Shown here: piece after piece, positions 498 to 63,162 of the stretch
How positions within the stretch are numbered: the stretch's first letter is position 1
How the letters are laid out: each line of letters begins with the position of its first letter
DNA from: Escherichia coli
GTDB lineage: Bacteria; Pseudomonadota; Gammaproteobacteria; Enterobacterales; Enterobacteriaceae
Length of the DNA stretch: 64,000 nucleotides
Direction: 5' to 3' (one strand)
NCBI RefSeq assembly: GCF_013315695.1
Contig: NZ_CP054353.1
Program-made: the position numbers and the translations under genes
Notes under the pieces: generated by a model
Database searches by the model: none
The model's input: only the letters and a program-made list of their open reading frames with translations
What the model was told of the DNA's origin: nothing

Positions 498-631
498 CAA
501 CCAAACGACTCGGGGTGCCCTTCTGCGTGAAGGCTGAGAAATACCCGTATCACCTGATCTGGATAATGCCAGCGTAGGGAAGTCACGGACCACCAGGTCA
601 TTGCTTCTTCACGTTATGGCAGGAGCAAACT
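498..631 (+). promoter_or_regulatory. TPP (thiamine pyrophosphate) riboswitch, thi-box leader of thiM
   Basis: Conserved thi-box core CTGAGA...ACCTGATCTGGATAATGCCAGCGTAGGGAA immediately upstream of thiM start with RBS GGAG; matches the known thiM riboswitch from memory. Confidence 0.85.
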
Positions 632-7112: not shown

Positions 7113-7170
7113 CTTTTAATTCCTTCATGACAGGTAATGTAAGGTACGCGATGACGGTAATGACTCCAAC

Positions 7171-7674
7171 TTATTGATAGTGTTTTATGTTCAGATAATG
7201 CCCGATGACTTTGTCATGCAGCTCCACCGATTTTGAGAACGACAGCGACTTCCGTCCCAGCCGTGCCAGGTGCTGCCTCAGATTCAGGTTATGCCGCTCA
7301 ATTCGCTGCGTATATCGCTTGCTGATTACGTGCAGCTTTCCCTTCAGGCGGGATTCATACAGCGGCCAGCCATCCGTCATCCATATCACCACGTCAAAGG
7401 GTGACAGCAGGCTCATAAGACGCCCCAGCGTCGCCATAGTGCGTTCACCGAATACGTGCGCAACAACCGTCTTCCGGAGCCTGTCATACGCGTAAAACAG
7501 CCAGCGCTGGCGCGATTTAGCCCCGACATAGCCCCACTGTTCGTCCATTTCCGCGCAGACGATGACGTCACTGCCCGGCTGTATGCGCGAGGTTACCGAC
7601 TGCGGCCTGAGTTTTTTAAGTGACGTAAAATCGTGTTGAGGCCAACGCCCATAATGCGGGCTGTTGCCCGGCAT
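7171..7674 (-). CDS. insB: IS1 InsB' (transposase catalytic part; expressed as InsAB' by -1 frameshift)
   Basis: 167-aa ORF overlapping insA in the -1 frame; identical to the copy at 12049..12552. Confidence 0.9.
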
Positions 7675-7868
7675 CCAACGCCATTCATGGCCATATCAAT
7701 GATTTTCTGGTGCGTACCGGGTTGAGAAGCGGTGTAAGTGAACTGCAGTTGCCATGTTTTACGGCAGTGAGAGCAGAGATAGCGCTGATGTCCGGCGGTG
7801 CTTTTGCCGTTACGCACCACCCCGTCAGTAGCTGAACAGGAGGGACAGCTGATAGAAACAGAAGCCAC
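7593..7868 (-). CDS. insA: IS1 InsA (DNA-binding protein / transposition inhibitor)
   Basis: 91-aa ORF identical to the second copy at 11855..12130; zinc-finger [15 protein letters not shown]...CSHC. Confidence 0.95.
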
Positions 7869-8145
7869 TGGAGCACCTCAAAAACACCATCATACACTAA
7901 ATCAGTAAGTTGGCAGCATCACCCGCGATGACAATACCACTTAATAATACCTTTTAAATACCTTTGCGGTGAAAACTTGACCGCTGTAACATTTTTTCTG
8001 ATGAATCGAGCCAACAGAAAACGCTGAAAAAACATCCAAAAGATGGAAAAACTCGCCCGTAACGACCAGGATTATGATTGCCCGCAAAAGGCGGGCCAGG
8101 ACAATCCATAGCCGATATCCAATCGGAATTTACGGGAGCATAGTA

Positions 8146-11571: not shown

Positions 11572-11854
11572 GGACGGTATATGACTAACCTGTTTGTTCG
11601 TAGCGGAATTTCTTTTGTCGATCGTAGCGAAGTTTTAGCCCATATCGGTAATGAGATGCTCGCGAAAGGTGTGGTTCATGATACCTGGCCACAGGCATTA
11701 ATTGCCAGAGAAGCAGAATTCCCTACCGGGATAATGCTTGAGCAGCACGCCATTGCAATACCGCATTGTGAGGCGATTCATGCTAAGTCGTCAGCCATTG
11801 GTGATGCTGCCAACTTACTGATTTAGTGTATGATGGTGTTTTTGAGGTGCTCCA

Positions 11855-12130
11855 GTGGCTTCTGTTTCTATCAGCTGTCCCTCCTGTTCAGCTACTGACG
11901 GGGTGGTGCGTAACGGCAAAAGCACCGCCGGACATCAGCGCTATCTCTGCTCTCACTGCCGTAAAACATGGCAACTGCAGTTCACTTACACCGCTTCTCA
12001 ACCCGGTACGCACCAGAAAATCATTGATATGGCCATGAATGGCGTTGGATGCCGGGCAACAGCCCGCATTATGGGCGTTGGCCTCAACACGATTTTACGT
12101 CACTTAAAAAACTCAGGCCGCAGTCGGTAA
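11855..12130 (+). CDS. insA: IS1 InsA
   Basis: 91-aa ORF, identical to copy 1. Confidence 0.95.
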
Positions 12131-12552
12131 CCTCGCGCATACAGCCGGGCAGTGACGTCATCGTCTGCGCGGAAATGGACGAACAGTGGGGCTATGTCGG
12201 GGCTAAATCGCGCCAGCGCTGGCTGTTTTACGCGTATGACAGGCTCCGGAAGACGGTTGTTGCGCACGTATTCGGTGAACGCACTATGGCGACGCTGGGG
12301 CGTCTTATGAGCCTGCTGTCACCCTTTGACGTGGTGATATGGATGACGGATGGCTGGCCGCTGTATGAATCCCGCCTGAAGGGAAAGCTGCACGTAATCA
12401 GCAAGCGATATACGCAGCGAATTGAGCGGCATAACCTGAATCTGAGGCAGCACCTGGCACGGCTGGGACGGAAGTCGCTGTCGTTCTCAAAATCGGTGGA
12501 GCTGCATGACAAAGTCATCGGGCATTATCTGAACATAAAACACTATCAATAA
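12049..12552 (+). CDS. insB: IS1 InsB'
   Basis: 167-aa ORF in the -1 frame relative to insA, identical to copy 1. Confidence 0.9.
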
Positions 12553-12840
12553 GTTGGAGTCATTACCTCAGCCATTTATCTGTTAAGGCCAACAAATAAA
12601 GTTCATTTTCAGCAAGCGGATGATGATAACGACGTGGCGGTATCGTTGGTTATTGCGTTGATTGTGGAAAATCCGCAGCAGCAATTGAAACTTTTACGCT
12701 GTTTATTTGGCAAGTTACAACAGCCCGATATCGTCGAGACACTAATTACTCTTCCTGAAACTCAGTTAAAGGAATACTTCACAAAGTATGTTTTAGATTC
12801 AGACGAATAAATCCCTCTGTAACAATAAAAAGGACTGTTT

Positions 12841-18324: not shown

Positions 18325-18411
18325 AAAAAATAAGCCCGTGTAAGGGAGATTACACAGGCTAAGGAGGTGGTTCCTGGTACAGCTAGCATTTTATGGGTTA
18401 TGTTTTTCAGC
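18325..18411 (-). ncRNA. cyaR: CyaR (RyeE) Hfq-dependent small RNA
   Basis: Minus-strand sequence GCTGAAAAACATAACCCATAAAATGCTAGCTGTACCAGGAACCACCTCCTTAGCCTGTGTAATCTCCCTTACACGGGCTTATTTTTT matches CyaR as I recall it, including the terminal hairpin and U-run. Confidence 0.85.
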
Positions 18412-18495
18412 GAAACGGATGATAACCTTAATAAATGCAGCTGTATGTGATCGGTTTCTAAGAATTTTCCATCCGGGAAAAATAATCGAAATTAA

Positions 18496-19857: not shown

Positions 19858-19959
19858 AATTCTCTCGTTCTGATGACAGGTCAGATCCGCTTCACCTGAT
19901 GAAGCGGTTAGGGGAGTGCCCCCACTTTAAGGGCGGGCATTGTAGCGCAATCGGCGGGT

Positions 19960-20256
19960 TTAGCTCCAGTGTAAATGTCTGGAGGCGTCCTGGTTTTGGT
20001 TAAGGATACGAATGACGATAATTTCCTCTGGCGATTGCAGGAAATAAATTACGTGGCGTTCAAAAGGAAGAACAAAAATACCTTCGCCTAATTCAGGTCT
20101 GGGCGTACCTATATTATTGTTACTCAGAATCTGGAGAACGTCTGAAAGATGTTCCACATATCTGTCGGCTTGTGGTTCGCCGAAATGGTGATAGCTGTAA
20201 TACCAGATGCCTTCTAAATCCTCATTGGCTTTTGGCATGAGTTTTATAGTACGCAC
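19960..20256 (-). CDS. ParE-like type II toxin (RelE/ParE superfamily)
   Basis: 98-aa ORF directly downstream of a ParD-like ORF with a 1-nt gap; C-terminal ParE-like signature (IIVIRILNQNQD). Confidence 0.65.
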   Translation of the reverse strand: MRTIKLMPKANEDLEGIWYYSYHHFGEPQADRYVEHLSDVLQILSNNNIGTPRPELGEGIFVLPFERHVIYFLQSPEEIIVIRILNQNQDASRHLHWS

Positions 20257-20257
20257 A

Positions 20258-20509
20258 TTATTTCCTTATCCCTGCTTTCACCTTCCGTAAAAACGCGTCC
20301 TTTTCCCACGGCTGAGCTTCACCACTACTCAACCCTTCAGCGAGCATGTCACGTAACGCTTGCAGGCGAGACTCTGCTTGCTTTTCTCGAAGTAAGCGCA
20401 GCGACTCACGGATCACTTCGCTTTGGGTGCGATAGTCGCCGGATTCAATTAAGGACTCGATAAATTCACGCAACTCATCGCCGAGATCAACCGTCATCGT
20501 TCTGGCCAT
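20258..20509 (-). CDS. ParD-like antitoxin (ribbon-helix-helix)
   Basis: Start placed at MARTMTVDLGDELREFIESLIESGDYRTQSEVIRESLRLL (about 83 aa); RHH fold typical of ParD/CopG antitoxins. Confidence 0.65.
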   Translation of the reverse strand: MARTMTVDLGDELREFIESLIESGDYRTQSEVIRESLRLLREKQAESRLQALRDMLAEGLSSGEAQPWEKDAFLRKVKAGIRK

Positions 20510-20762
20510 TTTACACCCGCCTGTAAGTAAAAATCTTACATCAGTGTATTTCATAAACCGGATAGCGTCACGAAAGTATTAGAAGATATTTTGGCATATG
20601 AACATGTTCAGGAAGATAAGTATGGGATGGTAAACAAAGAAAGCACAACGAGTGCTCGTCAGTGCCCACTATTTTAATGGCGGAGGTTAATCTTAATTAT
20701 CAATAACTAAGAGTTGTTTTGATATAAAGCCGGACGCCAACAACCCACGCCCGGCATCGTAA

Positions 20763-30800: not shown

Positions 30801-31021
30801 GCGGTAACGGCAGAGGTCATGACATCCGGGCTCGCACCTGGGTAGAGGGTAACCACCTGAATGGTCGGATAGTCCACTTCCGGCAGCGCCGAAACGGGCA
30901 GGGCTCGATAACCGATAATCCCGGCGAGTAAGATCGCCACCATCAGCAGCGTGGTGGCGACAGGACGCATAATAAACAGGCGCGACGGGCCGCCTGTGCT
31001 GCTCGGGGGTAACACCTGCAT
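27899..31021 (-). CDS. mdtB: RND multidrug efflux pump subunit MdtB
   Basis: 1040-aa RND permease paralogous to MdtC; overlaps mdtA stop by 1 nt. Confidence 0.9.
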
Positions 31022-32268
31022 CAGGAGCGTGCTCCTTTTTTCGCGTATTCGCGGCTGGTGGCTTTCTCTTCCGAAGTGGTGGCGCTCTGGGCTTCCACCA
31101 CTTCCACTTTCGCCCCTTCGGTCAGGCGATCAATTCCGTCCGTCACTACGCGGTCGCCCGCAGAAATACCTGCGCGGATCACCACTTTCTGACTGTCCTG
31201 AATGCCCGGTGTCACCAGATGTTTGCTGACTTTGTTTTCGCTATTCAGTACCCAGACAAAATGGCCTTCGTTGCCCATTTGCAGGGCGGCGGTGGGGATC
31301 ACCACGGCGTTTTGTTCGGTGTCGACTAACATGCGCGCGTTAACAAACTGATTGGGAAACAGCGCATCATCCTGATTATTAAAGCGAGCTTTCACTTTAA
31401 TCGTACCGGTAGTGGCATCGATTTGGTTATCGAGGCTTAACAGCGTGCCTTCGCTTAATTTCTTCGAGTTGGTGCGATCCCAGGCTTCTACCACCAGCGG
31501 TTTCCCGGCTTTTTGCGCCTGCACGACGGTAGCGATATCGCTTTCCGGCAGGGTAAAGAGCAAATCGATAGGATGCGTCTGGGTGATCACCACAATCCCG
31601 GTGGTATCACCACTGGAGATTTGGTTACCAACATCAACCTGCTTGAGACCAACGCGACCATCGACTGGTGCGGTGATGCGGCTCCAGTCGAGTTGCAGCT
31701 GTGCGCTGGCGACGCTTGCTTCATCAGCCTTAATGGTGCCTTCGGTTTCACTGACCAGCGCCTGTTGGGCATCCAGCTCCTGGCGGGAGACAAGATTGGT
31801 TTTTGCCAGTTGTTGATAACGCGCCAGGTCACGGCGGGCGTTGGCAAGCGTGGCTTTATCTTTTGCCAGTTGGCCCTGGGCTTGTGCTAATGCAACTTTG
31901 AACTGGCTGGGGTCAATTTCTGCCAGTAAATCGCCTGCTTTGACCTGCTGGCCTTCCAGGAAATGCAACGCCATCAGTTGACCGTCCACGCGGCTGCGCA
32001 CCGTAACAGTATTAGCGGCGGTAATGGTGCCAAGCCCGGTGAGGTAACGCGGAACAGCCTGTTCTACGGCGGTCGCCGCCTGAACCGGGGCTAATGGGCC
32101 GGAACGCATACCACGGCGACCACCCGCTGGCGATTGCTGCGCTTGTTTCGTCGCCCCTGGGGCTGCACTCCGGGAGTCATTGCGGCCTTGCCAGAACCAG
32201 AATGCGGCGATGGCGGCGATAACCACCACGATTACGATTACCCAACGGGATTTATAACTGCCTTTCAT
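31021..32268 (-). CDS. mdtA: RND efflux membrane fusion protein MdtA
   Basis: Start placed at [16 protein letters not shown] (415 aa) inside the longer six-frame ORF 31021..32415. Confidence 0.85.
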
Positions 32269-32321
32269 CGTTAAGAGTTTCTCTTCCTGAAACGTTTCGC
32301 GGAATGATACTAGTGTAGCCA

Positions 32322-32339
32322 GCCAATCAGGGAGAAAAA
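32322..32339 (-). promoter_or_regulatory. Candidate BaeR-binding box in the mdtA promoter
   Basis: Plus-strand GCCAATCAGGGAGAAAAA is the reverse complement of a sequence close to the BaeR consensus TTTTTCTCCATDATTGGC as I recall it; about 55 bp upstream of mdtA start. Confidence 0.5.
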
Positions 32340-32496
32340 TGGAGGAATTATGAAACACTATCGGGAATCGTCTGAATGGCGGGCACATTTGCGAGCACGC
32401 ATCCAGTAATAACACAGGAAACTATTTTATCTACGCGTTAGCGATAGACTGCATTCAGGGCAAAAGGAGGTAGGCCGACGATTTCAGCGGGACGCT

Positions 32497-32640
32497 GAAA
32501 CGGGAAAGCCCCTCCCGAGGAAGGGGCCTTAAATAAGGAAAGGGTCATGATGAAGCTACTCATCATCGTGGTGCTCTTAGTGATTAGCTACCCTGCATAC
32601 TAAGACTACCAGGGCGGGGGAAACCCCGCTCTACCCTCAC
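32497..32640 (-). ncRNA. sibB: Sib-family antisense sRNA (antitoxin) covering the ibs ORF; ends approximate
   Basis: Inferred from the known ibs/sib arrangement; minus-strand hairpin (GCCCCT...AGGGGC at 32508..32527) followed by a U-rich tract would form its terminator. Confidence 0.5.
32547..32603 (+). CDS. ibsB: Ibs-family type I toxin peptide, 18 aa (MMKLLIIVVLLVISYPAY)
   Basis: Tiny hydrophobic ORF with RBS AAGGAAAGGG, inside the first of two about 325-bp tandem repeat units; A/B naming is tentative. Confidence 0.75.
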   Translation: MMKLLIIVVLLVISYPAY

Positions 32641-32825
32641 TCCTGAAATTATGCCTTCACGATAAGATTGTCAATCCGCAGGCTTTGTAGTCTGCGATCC
32701 TGCCAGCAAATATTCTTTGCGAGTCGTTACGGAATAATCACCGAGGAAACTATTTTGTTCACGCGTTAGCGATAGACTGCATTCAGGGCGAAAGGAGGTA
32801 AGCCGACGATTTCAGCGGGACGCTG

Positions 32826-32962
32826 AAACGGGAAACCCTCTCCCGGAGAAGAGGGCTTTTAATAAGGAAAGGGTTATGATGAAGCACGTCATCATACTGG
32901 TGATACTCTTAGTGATTAGCTTCCAGGCTTACTAAGAACACCAGGGGGAGGGGGAAACCTCT
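32826..32962 (-). ncRNA. sibA: Sib-family antisense sRNA (second copy); ends approximate
   Basis: Same architecture as the first unit; hairpin CCCTCT...AGAGGG at 32835..32855. Confidence 0.5.
32876..32935 (+). CDS. ibsA: Ibs-family type I toxin peptide, 19 aa (MMKHVIILVILLVISFQAY)
   Basis: Second tiny hydrophobic ORF in the second repeat unit with the same RBS context; A/B naming tentative. Confidence 0.75.
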   Translation: MMKHVIILVILLVISFQAY

Positions 32963-33155
32963 CCCTAACCCTCACTCCTGAAATTATGTCACTCCGCCCT
33001 TAGTGTCAATCGACGGCTCTCCGTTCTTGCGAGGCGAATAGCAAAATTTTCTGCGCCGCCGGGCCTAATTCTGAAAGTTTCTTCGTTTGCTCTTATTTCA
33101 TTATTGCAATCGGTATGATACCGGACCTCAATAATTCTCTAAGAAAGGATTTCTT

Positions 33156-33815
33156 ATGAGCGAACAAATCACGTTTGCCACCAGCGATTTTGCCAGTAAC
33201 CCGGAACCACGTTGCCCCTGCATTTTGCTGCTGGATGTTTCTGGTTCTATGAACGGTAGACCCATTAATGAACTTAACGCCGGATTGGTTACCTTTCGCG
33301 ATGAGCTGCTTGCCGACCCGCTGGCCTTAAAAAGAGTGGAACTCGGTATTGTGACGTTCGGCCCAGTGCATGTGGAACAACCCTTTACCAGCGCCGCTAA
33401 TTTTTTCCCGCCCATCCTGTTTGCCCATGGGGATACACCAATGGGCGCCGCCATTACCAAAGCCCTGAATATGGTTGAGGAGCGCAAACGTGAGTATCGC
33501 GCCAATGGTATTTCCTATTATCGTCCGTGGATTTTCCTGATTACCGATGGCGCACCAACCGATGAGTGGCAGGCTGCTGCCAACAAGGTGTTTCAGGGGG
33601 AAGAAGATAAGAAGTTTGCCTTCTTTTCCATCGGTGTTCAGGGGGCGGATATGAAGACGCTGGCCCAAATCAGCGTTCGTCAGCCTTTGCCTCTTCAAGG
33701 ATTACAATTCCGCGAACTATTTAGCTGGTTATCCAGTTCGCTGCGTTCGGTTTCCCGCTCCACGCCGGGAACGGAAGTTGTACTGGAAGCGCCAAAAGGC
33801 TGGACGTCAGTGTGA
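33156..33815 (+). CDS. yegL: von Willebrand factor A (vWA) domain protein, TerY-like
   Basis: 219-aa ORF with MIDAS motif DVSGSM near the N-terminus; stop overlaps yegK start. Confidence 0.85.
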
Positions 33816-45815: not shown

Positions 45816-45852
45816 GCAGATGGCGGCGTCAATTTGTCGCCATCTGTATTTA
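45816..45852. terminator. Candidate bidirectional terminator between convergent asmA and higA-like gene
   Basis: Hairpin GCAGATGGCGGCG-TCAATTT-GTCGCCATCTG followed by TATTTAT. Confidence 0.5.
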
Positions 45853-45857
45853 TAGCA

Positions 45858-46148
45858 CTAAGCAGCATGTGGATATTGAATTTCAATACGTTGAATATGC
45901 AATCCTGCATGAGCCATCATGGTGATCAATTTATCGATACTAAAGATCTGGATCTTACCTCTGGCAAGTTCAGATATGCGAGGTTGAGTGACCCCTAAAG
46001 CAGACGCTGCCTGAGCCTGGCTAAACCCTTGTTGTTCAATCCAGTTATTAATGATCGTTACAAGTTCGGCACGGATCCGCATATTTTCCGCTTGTTCAGG
46101 GGTGTCACTCACCGCATCCCACACACTATCAAAGGTTTCAATTTTCAT
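45858..46148 (-). CDS. HigA-like antitoxin (XRE-family HTH)
   Basis: HTH QAQAASALGVTQPRISELARGK; immediately downstream of and overlapping a RelE/ParE-superfamily toxin-like ORF, the HigB-HigA gene order. Start codon uncertain (46148 or 46166). Confidence 0.65.
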   Translation of the reverse strand: MKIETFDSVWDAVSDTPEQAENMRIRAELVTIINNWIEQQGFSQAQAASALGVTQPRISELARGKIQIFSIDKLITMMAHAGLHIQRIEIQYPHAA

Positions 46149-46475
46149 TTTTCCGCTCCTGAACAAGTTCTTTATAGCGTCGTTTGTCTAAATCAATATC
46201 CGATTGACTGGTAGTCTGTGTTTTCTTTTGAAAACAATGCAATACGTAAACCGCTTCTTCAAATTTTGCGATATACATGACGCGATAGATCCCATCAGCA
46301 TCGCGAGTACGAATCTCTCGCACACCAGGGCCGATAGTTGAAAAGGTTTCCAGTCGTATGGGTTTAACCCTTGTTGGATCCTGTCGAGTTGATAGCCAAT
46401 TTCCTGTCGAGACGATTCTGGAAATGCGCGTAAATCGTCAAGACTGGTATCAAGAAAAGCCAGCTTTTTTCTCAT
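46138..46475 (-). pseudogene. HigB-like toxin (RelE/ParE superfamily), split by a frameshift
   Basis: N-terminal part (46188..46475) and C-terminal part (46138..46323) are in different frames; adding one T/A in the A4 run at 46341..46344 gives a continuous toxin of about 112 aa. Confidence 0.6.
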
Positions 46476-48133: not shown

Positions 48134-48601
48134 AGTAAGTACAAAACCTATTCGTTGTATGACAAATGTCACAATTCGATCATGGATAAATCGGGGCAAA
48201 AATGCAATGTTGCAGCACTATTTATCTCATATTATTTGAGGGTAATAACCTCACATTATCCCTGAATTAAAAGTGGTAATAATAAAACATTATTTAAGAA
48301 ATATCGCATGTGGAGACACTATATTAAATATTGTCAACCTAAAGAAACTCCTAAAAACCATATTGAATGACACTTAATATAATTCTTAAAAATAGCCAAT
48401 TGCCGAATTGTTACCTTGCCTGCTATTCCGTTAGCTGTAACACTTCCTCCTGCATTATTGGAGAGCCAATATTCAATTACCATAATGTCACCTTATATTC
48501 GGAAGTTAATTTCCGCAATAACCCTTTCTCATCAACGACTGTATGTTGAGAGAGTTTTAAAAATTAAGCTAAATCAGTGTATTGGTAGCTAAAAAGCCAG
48601 G

Positions 48602-48613
48602 GGCGGTAGCGTG
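48602..48613 (+). promoter_or_regulatory. ops element (GGCGGTAGCGTG) within JUMPstart, RfaH-dependent antitermination site in the wza leader
   Basis: Exact ops core GGCGGTAGCGT about 180 bp upstream of wza start. Confidence 0.8.
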
Positions 48614-63061: not shown

Positions 63062-63162
63062 CAGTTGCATAATCAACCGGATTAATTCTTCGGTAAATAA
63101 CGACAAAAACAAAATTGGCCGTTTCGGTCAGGGCCAACTATTGCCTGAAAAAGGGTAAAGAC

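Follow-up and report, generated by a model that had tools for sequence, protein, structure and literature searches.

Two tandem type I toxin–antitoxin modules between mdtA and yegL in an Escherichia coli chromosome: the ibsB/sibB–ibsA/sibA locus

The region between mdtA and yegL in the analysed window (one stretch of 64,000 nucleotides of E. coli DNA) is almost certainly the chromosomal ibsB/sibB–ibsA/sibA locus, in which two type I toxin–antitoxin modules lie in tandem. The ibs/sib assignment draws on the sequence and its family membership, on gene order, on the RNA fold and the geometry of the overlap, and on the distribution of the locus in the population, and the transcription, repression and toxicity of the modules would be those published for the K-12 and Salmonella homologues. 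The repeats, which we take to be those called 'QUAD' repeats by an older name, are already known and form the textbook E. coli sibA/sibB locus, the anatomy of which is not unusual. The locus was described in K-12 in 2008, its mechanism was dissected in 2010, it is represented in Rfam, and its toxins are routinely annotated by the NCBI pipeline. It carries little weight as a discovery, and its usefulness lies in a clean confirmation and in exact coordinates for both RNAs (Table 1).

Identity of the locus

A scan of the whole window against Rfam at gathering thresholds returned two full-length matches to the SIB_RNA model (RF00113), both on the minus strand and both spanning model positions 1–147 of 147. 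With a gathering score of 56 for the model, the match in the sibA unit (33009–32861) reached 149.5 bits (E 3.3e-31) and that in the sibB unit (32674–32532) reached 141.7 bits (E 2.9e-29). The K-12 sibA and sibB genes gave 149.5 and 142.0 bits with the same model, equal to the window scores. Because the model begins at the −35 box and ends before the terminator, the coordinates of the Rfam matches are not those of the transcripts; its positions 1–36 cover the sibB promoter. A preliminary description, made from the sequence alone, had placed the region in the Ibs toxin/Sib antisense RNA family and proposed a covariance-model search of the minus strand. The two matches, the mapping of the K-12 genes and the Ibs names in RefSeq agree with that placement, and the antisense RNA size that it predicted (110–145 nt) accords with the K-12 annotated lengths of 144 and 136 nt.

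The order yegL–sibA/ibsA–sibB/ibsB–mdtA and the tandem layout are the same in K-12 (MG1655; ibsA is b4667 and ibsB is b4668), relative to which the window is the reverse complement at this locus. Along its length, unit 2 is nearly identical to K-12, and unit 1 is identical to the K-12 ibsB unit at 317 of 330 positions. NCTC86 is the closest strain at the locus, with 100% identity to the window over an 881-nt region. In RefSeq its two ORFs are named 'type I toxin-antitoxin system Ibs family toxin' and 'toxin IbsA' and are flanked by mdtA and yegL; the annotation lists the toxin ORFs only, without sib genes.

Table 1. Positions of the ibs/sib features, the flanking genes and the other Rfam elements in the window
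Feature	Position	Strand	Basis
mdtA, multidrug efflux pump membrane-fusion subunit	31021–32268	−	NCTC86/K-12 annotation by coordinates; ORF list
Unit 1, ibsB-type/sibB module and upstream conserved block, adjoining mdtA	32407–32734		Direct repeats; two-unit alignment
sibB terminator hairpin, 11-bp stem, 4-nt loop, then UUUCC	32505–32530	−	Fold; conserved with compensatory changes in seven Sib RNAs
sibB antisense antitoxin RNA, 136 nt, +1G	32503–32638	−	K-12 sibB (b4437), 130/136 identical; RF00113
ibsB ribosome-binding site, AAGGAAAGGG, 3 nt before ATG	32534–32543	+	Sequence read
ibsB-type toxin ORF, 18 aa, MMKLLIIVVLLVISYPAY, F15Y relative to K-12 IbsB	32547–32603	+	K-12 ibsB, 52/57 nt identical; translation; WP_001386901.1
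Predicted sibB promoter, TTGACA 32674–32669, CATAAT 32653–32648 overlapping TAATTT 32651–32646	32646–32674	−	Sequence read
Unit 2, ibsA/sibA module, adjoining yegL	32735–33062		Direct repeats; two-unit alignment
sibA terminator hairpin, 11-bp stem, 4-nt loop, then UUUCCC	32833–32858	−	Fold; seven-Sib alignment
sibA antisense antitoxin RNA, 144 nt, +1G	32830–32973	−	K-12 sibA (b4436), 143/144 identical; RF00113
ibsA ribosome-binding site, AAGGAAAGGG, 3 nt before ATG	32863–32872	+	Sequence read
ibsA toxin ORF, 19 aa, MMKHVIILVILLVISFQAY	32876–32935	+	K-12 ibsA, 60/60 nt identical; WP_010723109.1
Predicted sibA promoter, TTGACA 33009–33004, CATAAT 32988–32983 overlapping TAATTT 32986–32981	32981–33009	−	Sequence read
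yegL, vWA-domain protein	33156–33815	+	NCTC86/K-12 annotation by coordinates; ORF list
TPP riboswitch ahead of thiM	501–597	+	Rfam, above gathering score, 71.2 bits
CyaR sRNA	18328–18413	−	Rfam, above gathering score, 100.7 bits
JUMPstart element, ~165 nt ahead of wza, which opens the colanic acid cluster	48575–48613	+	Rfam, above gathering score, 57.3 bits
algC RNA motif, just upstream of cpsG (phosphomannomutase)	63109–63158	+	Rfam, above gathering score, 78.2 bits

Repeat units, toxin ORFs and Sib RNAs

The tandem arrangement was recovered by a repeat search as four in-register families of direct repeats (D1–D4), with a start-to-start spacing of 328–335 bp, so the unit length of roughly 325 bp given in the preliminary description was slightly short. 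That account had also placed the repeats at 32417–32995. The features are indeed found there, but the repeat similarity runs wider, from ~32407 to ~33060, and the sibA −35 box (33009–33004) lies outside. Alignment of the two units gave a mean column identity of 87%, in keeping with the divergence that had been noted. Conservation is highest in the 124 nt that precede each ibs ORF (89%), compared with 72–80% for the ORF and RNA core. These upstream blocks (32407–32530 and 32735–32858) gave no alignment to the mapped ibsC/D/E promoter regions. Given their better conservation and their lack of alignment to the ibsC/D/E promoters, the promoter and 5′ UTR of ibsA and ibsB seem to be a distinct conserved module, with putative signals. 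Reading by eye gave only weak matches as candidate ibs promoters in both units, and these differ from the promoters of ibsC/D/E.

Both tiny hydrophobic peptides are encoded exactly as first quoted, and the strong ribosome-binding site described earlier is present three nucleotides ahead of the ATGATG start of each ORF. IbsA is identical to its K-12 counterpart (19/19 aa), and the IbsB-type peptide matches K-12 IbsB at 17 of 18 residues. The GRAVY values are 2.11 for the first (IbsB-type) peptide and 1.98 for the second (IbsA). The two ORFs are not chance ORFs, since a GRAVY of at least 2.0 is reached by only 3 of the 328 ATG ORFs of 15–25 aa in the 64-kb window, and two of these three are alternative in-frame starts of the IbsB-type peptide.

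On the opposite strand, both predicted sib promoters have a perfect TTGACA −35 hexamer, separated by 15 nt from CATAAT and by 17 nt from TAATTT, and the K-12-mapped start is a G located 7–9 nt past the −10 hexamers. The sibA promoter stretch is identical to that of K-12. In sibB the −10 hexamer is CATAAT in the window versus CATACT in K-12, the window version being closer to consensus. The terminator hairpins are G+C-rich and are followed by a U-tract of three U only. Thus, of the hairpin plus U-tract reported earlier, the hairpin on the opposite strand holds, with its 11-bp stem, and the U-tract is reduced to the first letters of UUUCC(C). The sib promoters and the minus-strand sib terminators both escaped a generic promoter and terminator scan, because of the 15-nt spacer to CATAAT and the presence of only three U. 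At the level of sequence, each unit would have its own promoter and terminator for a ~140-nt Sib RNA.

The single plus-strand 'terminator' called by that scan (32836–32855) is the sibA terminator palindrome read from the other strand. On the plus strand, this hairpin is followed by CUUUUAAUAA and lies in the ibsA 5′ UTR, just before the ribosome-binding site, where it could impose structure on the ibsA mRNA or act as an attenuator. In unit 1, the corresponding hairpin has a poorer T-run.

The predicted folds of both RNAs are more stable than those of shuffled controls (SibA, MFE −58.5 kcal/mol, z = −4.9; SibB, MFE −58.9 kcal/mol, z = −4.2) and consist of a closing stem between the 5′ and 3′ parts, three internal hairpins and an 11-bp terminal hairpin. 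The RNAalifold consensus of the two window and five K-12 Sib RNAs kept 41 pairs, and compensatory changes were present in 8 of these. The complementarity of SibA takes in the whole ibsA ORF and extends 46 nt beyond it on the ATG side and 38 nt beyond the stop codon; around the whole ibsB ORF, the corresponding extensions of SibB are 44 nt and 35 nt. The ribosome-binding sites of both ORFs are therefore inside the Sib-complementary regions, that of ibsB lying in the segment equivalent to the second target recognition segment of SibC (TRD2, below). Such complete overlap, including the ribosome-binding site, sets Ibs/Sib apart among cis-antisense systems (PMC2943612).

According to the summary given by Han et al. 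(2010; PMC2943612), K-12 has five constitutively expressed Sib RNAs of ~140 nt, and the Ibs peptides of 18–19 aa are toxic, with toxicity repressed by Sib; the results of Fozo et al. (2008) are cited here as summarised in that paper and in later ones. For SibC, the pairing partner of TRD1 (+46 to +68), a hairpin loop, lies inside the ORF, and that of TRD2 (+99 to +115), a single-stranded segment, is the translation-initiation region. The two domains act independently to start pairing, which then spreads, and the duplex is cleaved by RNase III (PMC2943612). TRD1 and TRD2 also lie where the family varies most, and they set which ibs mRNA is recognised (PMC2943612). The earlier statement on these units, that Sib RNAs tell their cognate ibs mRNA from the others, is correct in general, but ibsA, one of the two toxin genes here, is the published exception: non-cognate Sib RNAs appear to recognise it, and cells without SibA are viable (PMC2943612).

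By analogy with these data, the plus strand of each unit would encode a hydrophobic membrane peptide of 18–19 aa, and the minus strand would be transcribed from a near-consensus promoter into a structured ~140-nt Sib RNA. The constitutive Sib RNA would contact its cognate ibs mRNA first through two exposed segments, with the TRD1-equivalent pairing within the 3′ half of the ORF and the TRD2-equivalent at the translation-initiation region. Pairing would then spread, translation would be blocked, the duplex would be degraded and no toxin would be made; if Ibs accumulated, it would act at the inner membrane. The detail of the recognition domains and of RNase III comes from SibC/ibsC rather than from SibA or SibB, for which it is presumed.

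The window RNAs share with K-12 ibsC/sibC the RF00113 family, the overlap geometry, the closing stem, the TRD1 internal hairpin, the single-stranded TRD2 and the terminator hairpin (PMC2943612). In contrast, SibC has only 56–59% identity to them in the alignment, and ibsC/sibC is a single copy at fau–serA, with an ibs promoter region that is not alignable with the A and B units. Moreover, SibC starts at +1A and is NAD-capped, whereas SibA and SibB, which were assayed as separate RNA species, both start at +1G and lack the NAD cap, unlike SibC, SibD and SibE (PMC12956327); the window keeps +1G in both RNAs. Salmonella IbsA/SibA belongs to the same family, with a 19-aa type I toxin repressed by SibA, and suggests a molecular target for Ibs. 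For Salmonella IbsA, a 2025 preprint (bioRxiv 10.1101/2025.05.26.656083) reported inhibition of the Fo sector of ATP synthase, although this is another species, and the target (the Fo a and b subunits) and the virulence role are reported for Salmonella only. The E. coli ldr/rdl loci are likewise chromosomal type I systems, tandem in one intergenic region and with a cis-encoded antisense RNA (PMC2887945, PMC2943612), but their 35-aa toxin is unrelated, and their antisense RNA, unlike Sib, does not span the whole ORF and initiation region.

Population distribution and the B-type allele

The distribution of the locus was evaluated by megablast with positions 32280–33160 (881 nt) as the query against 5,426 complete E. 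coli genomes. A match was found in 5,419 genomes, with at least 80% query coverage in 5,260. For the 136-nt sibB/ibsB segment, 13 records were identical and 1,277, about a quarter of the E. coli records, had at least 99% identity; the B-type allele of the window is common in E. coli. The stretch 32280–32387 (query positions 1–108) was unaligned in many E. coli genomes, which indicates that the mdtA promoter-proximal region is variable.

The window differs from K-12 ibsB/sibB in the peptide (F15Y), in the −10 hexamer described above and in SibB itself, where six differences were found in 136 nt. All six are in or at the edge of segments equivalent to the recognition domains: five fall among the 23 nt that align to SibC TRD1, and the sixth sits at the 3′ edge of the segment equivalent to TRD2. 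In the ORF, five changes were found, namely F15Y and four synonymous changes, a proportion that fits continued selection on the peptide. Two of the SibB changes make the TRD1-equivalent segment identical to SibA, and the longest identical run of SibA and SibB in this region is 16 nt in the window versus 9 nt in K-12. Over the 23 nt of the TRD1-equivalent segment, SibA and SibB of the window differ at 5 positions, and the TRD2-equivalent segment contains 14 nt common to both. The TRD1-equivalent segment of the B-type unit is partly SibA-like, probably through gene conversion between the tandem units.

Unit number also varies. RIVM_C039205, an example of a three-unit allele, has three RF00113 matches and encodes the peptides MMKLVIIVVLLVISYPAY, MMKLLIIVVLLVISFPAY and IbsA, in that order. 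Three-unit alleles occupy the same site and contain the same ibsA unit, and their mdtA-proximal unit shares the ...ISYPAY C-terminus with the window; they differ in carrying an extra B-type unit, whereas the window has two units in all. The copy number of ibs is known to vary among enterobacterial genomes, with seven ibs genes in E. coli O157:H7 Sakai (PMC2887945). The B-type unit of the window looks like a mosaic of the two B-type units, its ORF resembling K-12 in the 5′ part and the 'Y' unit in the 3′ part, and gene conversion is its simplest and probable origin. We also considered descent from a three-unit ancestor by simple unequal crossover of its two B-type units and rejected it, as the observed pattern is the reverse of that left by a simple deletion.

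Two other explanations of the locus were weighed against two active modules. In one, a single unit would be a decaying, non-functional copy, most plausibly the ibsB-type unit with its F15Y substitution and six RNA changes, and only ibsA/sibA would be active. The mdtA-adjacent unit is indeed the more polymorphic (96% identity to K-12, versus 99% for sibA), the number of units differs between strains, and the curated K-12 annotation calls IbsB only a 'putative toxic peptide'. However, the ORF, the ribosome-binding site, the perfect −35, the CATAAT −10 and the terminator hairpin of this unit are all intact, its covariance score equals that of K-12 sibB (141.7 vs. 142.0 bits), and neither the 1,277 records sharing the segment at ≥99% identity nor the predominance of synonymous changes in the ORF is what decay would leave, so that we consider loss of this unit very improbable.

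The other explanation, a non-coding intergenic repeat family with fortuitous small ORFs and a stand-alone sRNA that has other targets, draws on history: the Sib family came to notice through its intergenic repeats and abundant sRNAs, its ORFs were recognised later, and the Rfam name is 'Short Intergenic Abundant RNA'. Against this, the ORFs are kept across the A–E paralogues with a shared ribosome-binding site and ATGATG, and they are kept across strains with mostly synonymous changes. Furthermore, the published toxicity and repression assays, in the form summarised in PMC2943612, refute it for K-12, and its probability is close to nil.

Within the reading of two type I modules, the allelic differences bear on how separate the modules are. 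The 16-nt run shared by SibA and SibB means that SibA might cross-repress the ibsB-type mRNA, which would leave the modules partly redundant rather than insulated. In addition, all six SibB changes lie in or beside recognition segments while one residue of the peptide is changed, a pattern that could reflect ongoing diversifying selection on RNA–RNA specificity within E. coli. We regard this proposal of cross-repression and diversifying selection as rather unlikely. The possible SibA/ibsB cross-talk and the clustering of allelic differences are speculative matters of specialist interest; the clustering in recognition segments and the variation between two and three units may be relevant to the insulation of paralogous antisense RNAs.

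Surroundings within the window

Over the 64 kb, the window aligns with NCTC86 at 96–98.6% identity in blocks, versus 100% at the ibs/sib region, which suggests that the ibs/sib haplotype may be shared across lineages by recombination. The possibility that the window is NCTC86 itself was ruled out by the block identity, by two IS1 insertions and by the different first 497 nt. Positions 1–497, upstream of the thiM TPP riboswitch, have no counterpart in NCTC86 at this position, where rcnR is found instead; in the best-matching genomes they are annotated as 'HTH-like domain-containing protein'. No complete E. coli genome of the collection covered the first 2.5 kb in full at >98.9% identity, and the best partial match had 99.5% identity over 94%. 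Taken with the IS1 content, this may hint at Shigella or at an E. coli lineage absent from the collection.

In the interval that separates mdtA from unit 1, a 19-codon plus-strand ORF (32351–32410) has GGAGGA as its ribosome-binding site; it was considered as a gene and rejected. The full ORF is present in RIVM_C039205, but in K-12 a TGG to TGA change leaves 9 codons, and it is therefore unlikely to be a conserved gene.

The region of NCTC86 syntenic with the window contains two type II toxin–antitoxin pairs, ParD/ParE between yegP and yegQ (about 19950–20550 in transferred coordinates) and a RelE/ParE protein with an HTH protein between yegH and asmA (about 45840–46460, likewise transferred). 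Both are probably present in the window as well, since they are inside blocks that align to it with few gaps.

The two IS1 copies (768 bp each, at 7156–7923 and 11804–12571) contain InsA/InsB ORFs, are in opposite orientation, and are both absent from NCTC86. Each has its own 9-bp target duplication (CGCGATGAC and TCAGCCATT). One copy is between yegT and fbaB, and the other interrupts gatA (galactitol PTS IIA), an insertion that probably inactivates galactitol uptake.
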